Below are positions 18,956 to 19,774 of a stretch of 40,995 bases of DNA, one piece after another. Numbering within the stretch: the stretch's first letter is position 1; every line of letters starts with the position of its first letter. Both the position numbers and the translations under genes were made by a program. The stretch lies in the sequence record PP430152.1. One strand, given 5' to 3'. The stretch comes from Enterobacteria phage FtMidnight. The notes beneath the pieces were generated by a model that made no database searches, had not been told where the DNA came from, and saw only the letters and a list, made by a program, of their open reading frames with translations.

Positions 18956-19774
18956 ATGCCAACTTACCAAGAAGCTGAATTAAGCCTTGACGGTGGTGCA
19001 CCTTATGAACTTTACAGGTTTGTAACGCCGTCAAAGTCTTTTTACTACACTTCAGACGCTATTCAACATAACTTTGACAACAATACATATTTACCAATTG
19101 AAGGCTTGAAAAGAACTGAAATAAAAATAACAACCCATGAAGACGCTGACAGCAATTTTTCAATTGAAATGCCGCTTGCTGTTGAATTGGCGCGGGCTTA
19201 TGCGTTGGCGATTACCCCGCCTTCCCTGAAGCTAACTATTTTCCGTTTCCATAGGGGTGCAACAGGCCATGCGATTTATTGGGATGGTGATATAAACAGC
19301 GTAACCACACGCGGCCAGCGTTGCACCTTTACAGCAACTTCAGATTTTGGGGTCATTATGACTTCAAGCTTGCCCACATTAAGCATTCAGCCGCCTTGTA
19401 ATAACGTACTGTTTGATAACCGTTGTAAGGTTAGCCGTTCGGCCAACTCTCACGCTTCTACGGTCACGGCTTCAAGCGGCAACAACATTTCACTTGCCAA
19501 CATTGGAAGCTTTGGGCCAACTTGGTTTGTTGGCGGTGAAATGGTCTTTGGCGCTGAACGCCGTTCAATAGTCGCACAAGACGGGCTTGATTTTACCATC
19601 AATTATCCGTTTGCAATTCAGCCTGTAAACGGTGACGGCGTTGGTGTTGCGGCTGGTTGTGACCATAGTTTTAATGGTGCTGGTGGTTGCCCCAAGTTCG
19701 CAAATCAAAAGAATTACGGCGGCTTCCCTTATGTTCCGGGTGAAGACAACAACATTTTTGCAGTAGGAATTTAA
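18956..19774 (+). CDS. tail-tip protein with C-terminal cysteine cluster (lambda gpL / GTA hub-like)
   Basis: 272 aa; RBS GCGGAG; four Cys (CNNVLFDNRC ... GCDHSFNGAGGCPKF) followed by NYGGFPYVPG, a pattern I associate with gpL / BR0599-type tail-tip proteins. Confidence 0.4.
   Translation: MPTYQEAELSLDGGAPYELYRFVTPSKSFYYTSDAIQHNFDNNTYLPIEGLKRTEIKITTHEDADSNFSIEMPLAVELARAYALAITPPSLKLTIFRFHRGATGHAIYWDGDINSVTTRGQRCTFTATSDFGVIMTSSLPTLSIQPPCNNVLFDNRCKVSRSANSHASTVTASSGNNISLANIGSFGPTWFVGGEMVFGAERRSIVAQDGLDFTINYPFAIQPVNGDGVGVAAGCDHSFNGAGGCPKFANQKNYGGFPYVPGEDNNIFAVGI

Follow-up and report, generated by a model that had tools for sequence, protein, structure and literature searches.

A tail-tip baseplate hub protein of Enterobacteria phage FtMidnight with a conserved, probably metal-binding four-cysteine site

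One gene in the tail module of Enterobacteria phage FtMidnight (sequence record PP430152.1) encodes a small protein whose cysteines and Gly/Pro-rich C-terminal motif were read, in an earlier note made from the sequence alone, as signs of a tail-tip protein with a four-cysteine Fe-S or Zn site. This raises the question of which tail component the gene encodes, whether the cysteine pattern is kept among its relatives, and what kind of center the cysteines would hold. The window, that is, the whole stretch of DNA analyzed, is 40,995 nt long and represents a near-complete lytic siphophage genome of ~41 kb with the small terminase subunit gene first. Family membership, fold, gene context, and the conservation of the four cysteines with their alignment to known ligands were computed here. 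From these results, the protein is very probably the small subunit of a split siphophage tail-tip hub, its C-terminal domain tied by a four-cysteine metal center that is most likely a [4Fe-4S] cluster.

The gene, its protein, and its family

The gene (positions 18956..19774, + strand), identified from the ORF list and the sequence, is complete and encodes 272 aa. It has an ATG start with a GGAG ~9 nt upstream, begins 5 nt past the stop of a 618-aa ORF (ending at 18950), and stops 2 nt short of the start of an 805-aa ORF (19777); this tight spacing with both neighbors indicates that it is a member of a tightly packed operon. The protein contains five cysteines, at residues 123, 148, 157, 235, and 245. 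The earlier note had counted four, which is the number of conserved cysteines but not the total, C123 being extra. The spacings x7 and x10 that it gave need correction to C148-x8-C157 and C235-x9-C245, and the C-terminal cluster that it described is C-terminal only as regards the second pair, the first lying mid-protein. Since 77 residues separate the two pairs, one segment in the middle of the protein and one near its C-terminus together make up the site. As had been reported, NYGGFPYVPG follows the cysteines, at residues 253 to 262. Cysteine, scarce in this phage as a whole, makes up 1.8% of the protein, compared to 0.79% over 29 ORFs of the genome, and the tape measure and distal tail proteins have zero cysteines.

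Profile searches placed the protein in a family of baseplate hub proteins. It matched PF09931 ("Baseplate hub protein, N-terminal attachment domain") with 33.3 bits against a cut-off of 26 (residues 27 to 160 on profile positions 27 to 160 of 160) and PF09356 (Phage_BR0599) with 48.3 bits against a cut-off of 22.9 (residues 190 to 264 on profile positions 2 to 80 of 80). The match to TIGR02218 ("phage/gene transfer agent baseplate hub protein"; E = 7e-24) reached 84.9 bits, above the equivalog cut-off of 80.5 by a narrow margin, and phrog_778 was matched with an E value of 3.6e-56. With both Pfam matches above their gathering scores and TIGR02218 above its equivalog cut-off, the searches bear out the suggested BR0599/DUF2163-type protein of the tail tip or baseplate hub: our protein is a member of the TIGR02218/PF09931+PF09356 hub family, which has the metal site as a hallmark. 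The name tail-tip baseplate hub 1 protein (gpL/g13-like, with Fe-S or metal binding) can be given to the gene product with confidence; it is more informative than "tail assembly protein" and "hypothetical protein," the labels that Septimatrevirus-like relatives carry. Beyond annotation, this assignment has little consequence, and the question of why siphophage tips bear a surface Fe-S cluster is not made more tractable by this sequence.

Structural comparisons pointed to the same proteins. Searched as a single sequence against the PDB, the protein matched chain 8rk3_g of phage JBD30, gp27 of Salmonella phage Chi (8vjh), the RcGTA hub (6tba/6teh), and the R4C hub (8gtc). A profile built from 119 homologues gave Chi gp27 (8.3e-53), JBD30 gp50 (1.4e-45), RcGTA g13 (3.5e-14), and the R4C hub (1e-12); profile matches to the designed beta-propeller "Pizza" were dismissed as noise, spanning only ~40 residues with zero significant stretches. 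Structure prediction, which the earlier note had proposed as a check, yielded a confident AF2 model from the 119-sequence alignment (mean pLDDT 92), the fold of which matches hub proteins and lambda gpL. Foldseek against the PDB ranked JBD30, Chi, RcGTA, R4C, and lambda gpL in that order, followed by Sf11, T5 pb3, and DT57C, with E values from 2.4e-19 to 1e-8 for the top four matches (8rk3, 8vjh, 6tba, and 8gtc). Full-length TM-scores were modest (0.38 to 0.46, with an rmsd of ~15 Å), likely because the domain orientation in the monomer model is unlike that in the assembled tip. In the assembled JBD30 baseplate, the long linker between the domains of gp50 wraps round a hub subunit (JBD30 paper).

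The model comprises an N-terminal attachment domain (HDI-like; ~aa 1 to 142; 18956..19381, + strand) and an inserted beta-strand domain (~aa 166 to 232; 19451..19651, + strand) that separates both halves of the metal site. The boundaries of the attachment domain, which contains most of the PF09931 match (residues 27 to 160), were set by analogy with the hub domains of RcGTA (residues 1 to 142) and R4C (residues 1 to 141), and pLDDT exceeds 90 across it. The inserted domain, predicted with pLDDT of ~97 to 98, is delimited by DSSP strands at residues 165 to 232, and PF09356 spans residues 190 to 264. It corresponds to the domain named "oligosaccharide-binding" in the RcGTA and R4C papers, sugar binding being putative.

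Among solved structures, JBD30 gp50 ("upper baseplate protein," 8rk3, DUF2163 domain-containing) is the closest homologue by both sequence and fold. At 273 aa versus 272 aa here, it has two domains and a linker, aligned end to end with our protein (E = 4.7e-12 as a single sequence), and was the top fold match (E = 2.4e-19). Identity between the two is ~25%, and the second cysteine pair is spaced x6 in JBD30 but x9 here. Chi gp27 (baseplate hub 1 protein, 8vjh_D), also 272 aa long, gave a full-length alignment and the second-best fold match; it has ~23% identity to the FtMidnight protein and keeps the four cysteines in the alignment (GCPHALYDGQCRV ... GCPRTSAAC). RcGTA g13 and the R4C hub belong to the same Pfam and TIGRFAM family and have the same domain order, namely, attachment domain, split ion-binding domain, and inserted beta domain. 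Their sequence likeness to our protein lies mainly in the C-terminal half (E = 5e-7), and RcGTA has a clip domain (residues 264 to 296) where the FtMidnight protein has ~10 residues.

The relationship to lambda gpL (8iyk_L), which the earlier note had also invoked, is upheld by fold, motif, and role but not by the Phage_tail_L profile search. The lambda protein occupies the same tail-tip position in the same role and was recovered by Foldseek (E = 4.9e-6; TMt 0.48). Its first cysteine pair (173/182) is spaced x8, as are C148 and C157, and the sequences around and after the last cysteine, GC-KFRNNVGNFGGF in gpL and GCPKFANQKNYGGF here, share the pattern GC-KF-N-N(F/Y)GGF. In gpL, only 22 residues lie between the cysteine pairs, compared to the 77-residue stretch with the inserted beta domain here; this domain is present alike in the FtMidnight, RcGTA, R4C, JBD30, and Chi proteins but is absent from gpL. 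PF05100 (Phage_tail_L) did not match our protein at E ≤ 1, nor did the profile of 119 homologues match 8iyk_L at E ≤ 1, and hhalign against the single gpL sequence (confirmed identical to 8iyk_L) returned a probability of 22.7% over 47 N-terminal columns only. Membership in Phage_tail_L was therefore rejected. The protein works like gpL while standing outside its Pfam family and is kin to it by fold, motif, and role.

The four cysteines and the center they would hold

A word-indexed database search with the protein returned 30 close relatives, and an exhaustive HMMER search of 1.84 billion cluster representatives returned 3,353 matches at E ≤ 1e-3, 117 of them at E ≤ 1e-30. Conservation of the cysteines was scored in an alignment of 178 sequences, i.e., the query and 177 retrieved homologues with 27 to 66% identity. 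Cysteine is found at the position of C148 in 178/178 sequences, of C157 in 177, of C235 in 176, and of C245 in 177; one truncated protein of 205 aa is among the sequences that lack one of the four. At the position of C123, by comparison, cysteine occurs in 14/178 sequences, and Ala is usual. In the 119-sequence alignment, with a mean column identity of 31%, the invariant columns are C148, C157, G194, G234, C235, and N250. The earlier note had held that a lack of cysteine conservation among homologues would speak against its proposal; the four are instead near invariant, which supports the view that the metal site is essential. This invariance over ~180 diverse homologues is what the present analysis adds.

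Length varies among these relatives. A total of 41 of the 177 homologues are 400 to 500 aa long, with a C-terminal extension of ~150 to 190 aa beyond the conserved 270-aa core. The extensions had no Pfam match and no tblastn match in the genome, and their interpretation as fused gpK/NlpC-P60 peptidases or as kin of the phage's own genes was dropped on these grounds. They split into many unrelated sequence clusters and may represent a hypervariable module appended to the core, perhaps one that binds receptors.

The two cysteine pairs lie in two separate segments. Segment 1 (~aa 143 to 165; 19382..19450, + strand), delimited by its two conserved cysteines and by alignment with JBD30 gp50 and RcGTA, carries the motif QPPCNNVLFDxRCKV, with C148 encoded at nt 19397 to 19399 and C157 at nt 19424 to 19426. 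Segment 2 (aa 233 to 262; 19652..19741, + strand), delimited by conserved columns and by alignment with JBD30 Cys238/Cys245, carries AGCDHSxxGxxGCPKFxNQxNFGGxPxVPG, with C235 at nt 19658 to 19660, C245 at nt 19688 to 19690, and NYGGFPYVPG (aa 253 to 262) at nt 19712 to 19741. Invariant or near-invariant columns in segment 2 are G234, C235, C245, K247, N250, G255, G256, P258, and P261.

In HMMER alignments, C148, C157, C235, and C245 fall on Cys147, Cys156, Cys238, and Cys245 of JBD30 gp50, which are metal ligands according to the JBD30 paper. They also fall in the ion-binding segments of RcGTA (residues 143 to 167 and 250 to 263), four cysteines of which hold an Fe-S cluster in g13 (RcGTA paper), and the same four-cysteine Fe-S arrangement has been described for the R4C hub (R4C paper). 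In lambda gpL, Cys173, Cys182, Cys205, and Cys212 surround density modeled as an Fe-S cluster (lambda tail-tip paper), and T1 gp36 shows the same Fe-S feature in cryo-EM. The proposal of a four-cysteine Fe-S or Zn site thus gains support, its cysteines being both conserved and aligned with observed metal ligands. The expectation that such a center would be unusual for this lineage has to be given up, considering that the whole family has it, with cryo-EM precedents in JBD30 gp50, RcGTA g13, R4C, lambda gpL, and T1 gp36. The center in the FtMidnight protein is most likely a [4Fe-4S] cluster.

The same protein, in the same role, might instead have a tetrahedral Cys4 site around one ion, either Zn2+ or Fe. 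Two cysteine pairs contributed by two segments are typical of structural Zn sites, which counts in favor of a single ion. In addition, JBD30 gp50 was modeled with one "putative metal ion" (JBD30 paper), and since this is the closest solved homologue, some weight has to be left to a mononuclear site. The JBD30 authors themselves, however, term the site a "metal-sulphur cluster" and liken it to the Fe-S clusters of other phages, and strong cluster-sized density was modeled as Fe-S in RcGTA, R4C, lambda, and T1. In lambda gpL and its homologues, where the cofactor has been characterized biochemically, it is a [4Fe-4S]2+ cluster, which is sensitive to oxygen (Tam et al. 2013, cited through later papers). 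The x8 spacing of the first pair, shared with gpL, and the motif GC-KF-N-NFGGF common to both also argue against a single ion, and we consider such a site unlikely in the FtMidnight protein.

A second departure concerns what the center does. The lambda tail-tip paper describes the role of the lambda cluster as unknown, so that some small probability falls to regulation or redox sensing. [quoted passage not shown] With such a switch, cluster integrity would gate the stability of the tip or the conformational opening by which DNA ejection begins, and infectivity would hinge on the environmental redox state and on how well the host can assemble Fe-S clusters. We regard this as quite improbable.

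Less probable still, to the point of being hardly credible, is that the mature virion contains no metal at this site and that two disulfide bonds staple the C-terminal domain. Structural disulfides are known in phage particles, for example, in the capsid proteins of JBD30, but tails assemble in the reducing cytoplasm, extra nonprotein density lies between the four thiols in the solved proteins of JBD30, RcGTA, R4C, lambda, and T1, and the invariance of all four cysteines across hosts fits a common cofactor. Finally, the inexact spacings reported earlier and the unconserved C123 might have suggested a functionless chance feature of a generic tail protein, but retention of the four cysteines in 176 to 178 of 178 sequences, at identities of 27 to 66% and against a mean column identity of 31%, places the pattern beyond chance and, together with their mapping onto experimentally seen ligands, refutes this explanation almost completely.

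Place and proposed role in the tail tip

The tail genes run in the order tape measure, two structural genes, distal tail protein (Dit), the gene studied here, and hub, gene for gene as in Pseudomonas phage 73. The tape measure protein (1143 aa; 11747..15178, + strand) matched phrog_3336 with an E value of 4.8e-237. It is followed by two adjacent paralogous structural ORFs of 333 and 303 aa (15179..17091, + strand), both of which matched phrog_687 ("structural protein"). Lying between the tape measure and Dit genes, these two ORFs occupy the position of the JBD30 heterodimeric side-fiber proteins gp47/gp48; tested as kin of the latter, they gave no match among PDB sequences.

Dit (618 aa; 17094..18950, + strand) matched phrog_1082 (E = 1.5e-81) and is in the position of phage 73 gp023. 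It also matched a 567-aa JBD30 chain, 8rk3_U ("Virion structural protein"; E = 2.8e-13), which would be the JBD30 distal tail protein gp49, judging from the component list of that paper and from gene position. On the other side of the gene lies that for an 805-aa protein of the hub or central tip (BH2P, gpJ-core or megatron-like; 19777..22194, + strand), assigned by PF13550 (Phage-tail_3) and phrog_1101 (E = 2.9e-222). Residues 86 to 746 of the hub matched the 735-aa JBD30 chain 8rk3_o ("Tip attachment protein J domain-containing protein"; E = 6e-52), presumably the JBD30 baseplate hub gp53, and there were also a match to Chi 8vjh_A and a partial match to GTA_megatron. Hub residues 1 to 71, which include the hydrophobic N-terminal helix MWFVIAFVVAFVAMAAL, matched phrog_1180 and the 76-aa "tail assembly protein 1" of Chi (8vjh_U). 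The 805-aa hub therefore looks like a fusion with an N-terminal piece resembling tail assembly protein 1. In Chi, by comparison, the 76-aa tail assembly protein 1 forms a chain of its own, and the hub protein is much longer (1296 aa).

JBD30 gp50 has the same neighbors, with Dit on its upstream side and a gpJ-like hub on its downstream side. Gene numbering in JBD30 places gp51 and gp52 between gp50 and the hub gp53, whereas the FtMidnight hub gene adjoins ours directly; nor is there an equivalent of RcGTA g14 or of gpK (an NlpC/P60 peptidase gene) between the two. The phages also differ in that JBD30 is temperate, while FtMidnight has the phage 73 gene order and its own DNA polymerase and primase genes.

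Considering this context and the solved tips of its relatives, we infer the stoichiometry of the protein, its position in the virion, the identity of its metal, and its structural role. By analogy, three copies would sit just under the distal tail protein ring. [quoted passage not shown] A long linker would lead from there to the other domain, which would lie exposed on the outer face of the tip cone. In that domain, C148, C157, C235, and C245 would ligate the metal center, tying residues ~143 to 165 to residues 233 to 262, and the inserted beta domain (aa 166 to 232) would project from it. The cluster would be inserted by the Fe-S assembly machinery of the host. The role of the center would be structural, in that it would lock the fold of the C-terminal domain and so allow the tip complex to assemble and to stay stable. 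The protein ends in a short C-terminal tail (aa 263 to 272; 19742..19771, + strand), with pLDDT of ~60 in the monomer model. This tail is probably inserted between hub subunits, by analogy with JBD30 gp50, the C-terminus of which lies buried between hub proteins (JBD30 paper).

Genome setting and other observations

On the + strand, the genome carries genes for the small and large terminase subunits, portal, head morphogenesis protein, major head protein, tail proteins, and tail-tip proteins. A replication module lies downstream, mostly on the - strand, with genes for DNA polymerase, processivity factor, helicase, a Cas4-domain exonuclease, SSB, Sak4, and MazG; the primase gene of this module is on the + strand. 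The genome is syntenic with that of Pseudomonas phage 73 (Septimatrevirus), with protein identity of only ~48%. A megablast search with the tail-tip region as query, run on 50,697 phage records, returned no match, indicating that the phage is only distantly related to them at the DNA level; by tblastn, 655 records matched, all below 60% identity. A contig of 40,057 bp from the assembly of run ERR12057344 encodes a protein 99% identical to ours. The FtMidnight genome probably represents a new genus-level lineage.

Two other observations concern the replication module. The Cas4-domain exonuclease (370 aa, phrog_1990; 27369..28481, - strand) is unusually rich in cysteine (12 residues, 3.2%) and bears C306-x2-C309-x5-C315, the classical Cas4/AddB-type Fe-S motif, by which it is probably a second, unrelated Fe-S protein of this phage. 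A 243-aa ORF (35632..36363, + strand) has matches to phrog_29311 and to a primase C-terminus, both of which it shares with the C-terminus of the 778-aa primase (31866..34202, + strand). [quoted passage not shown]
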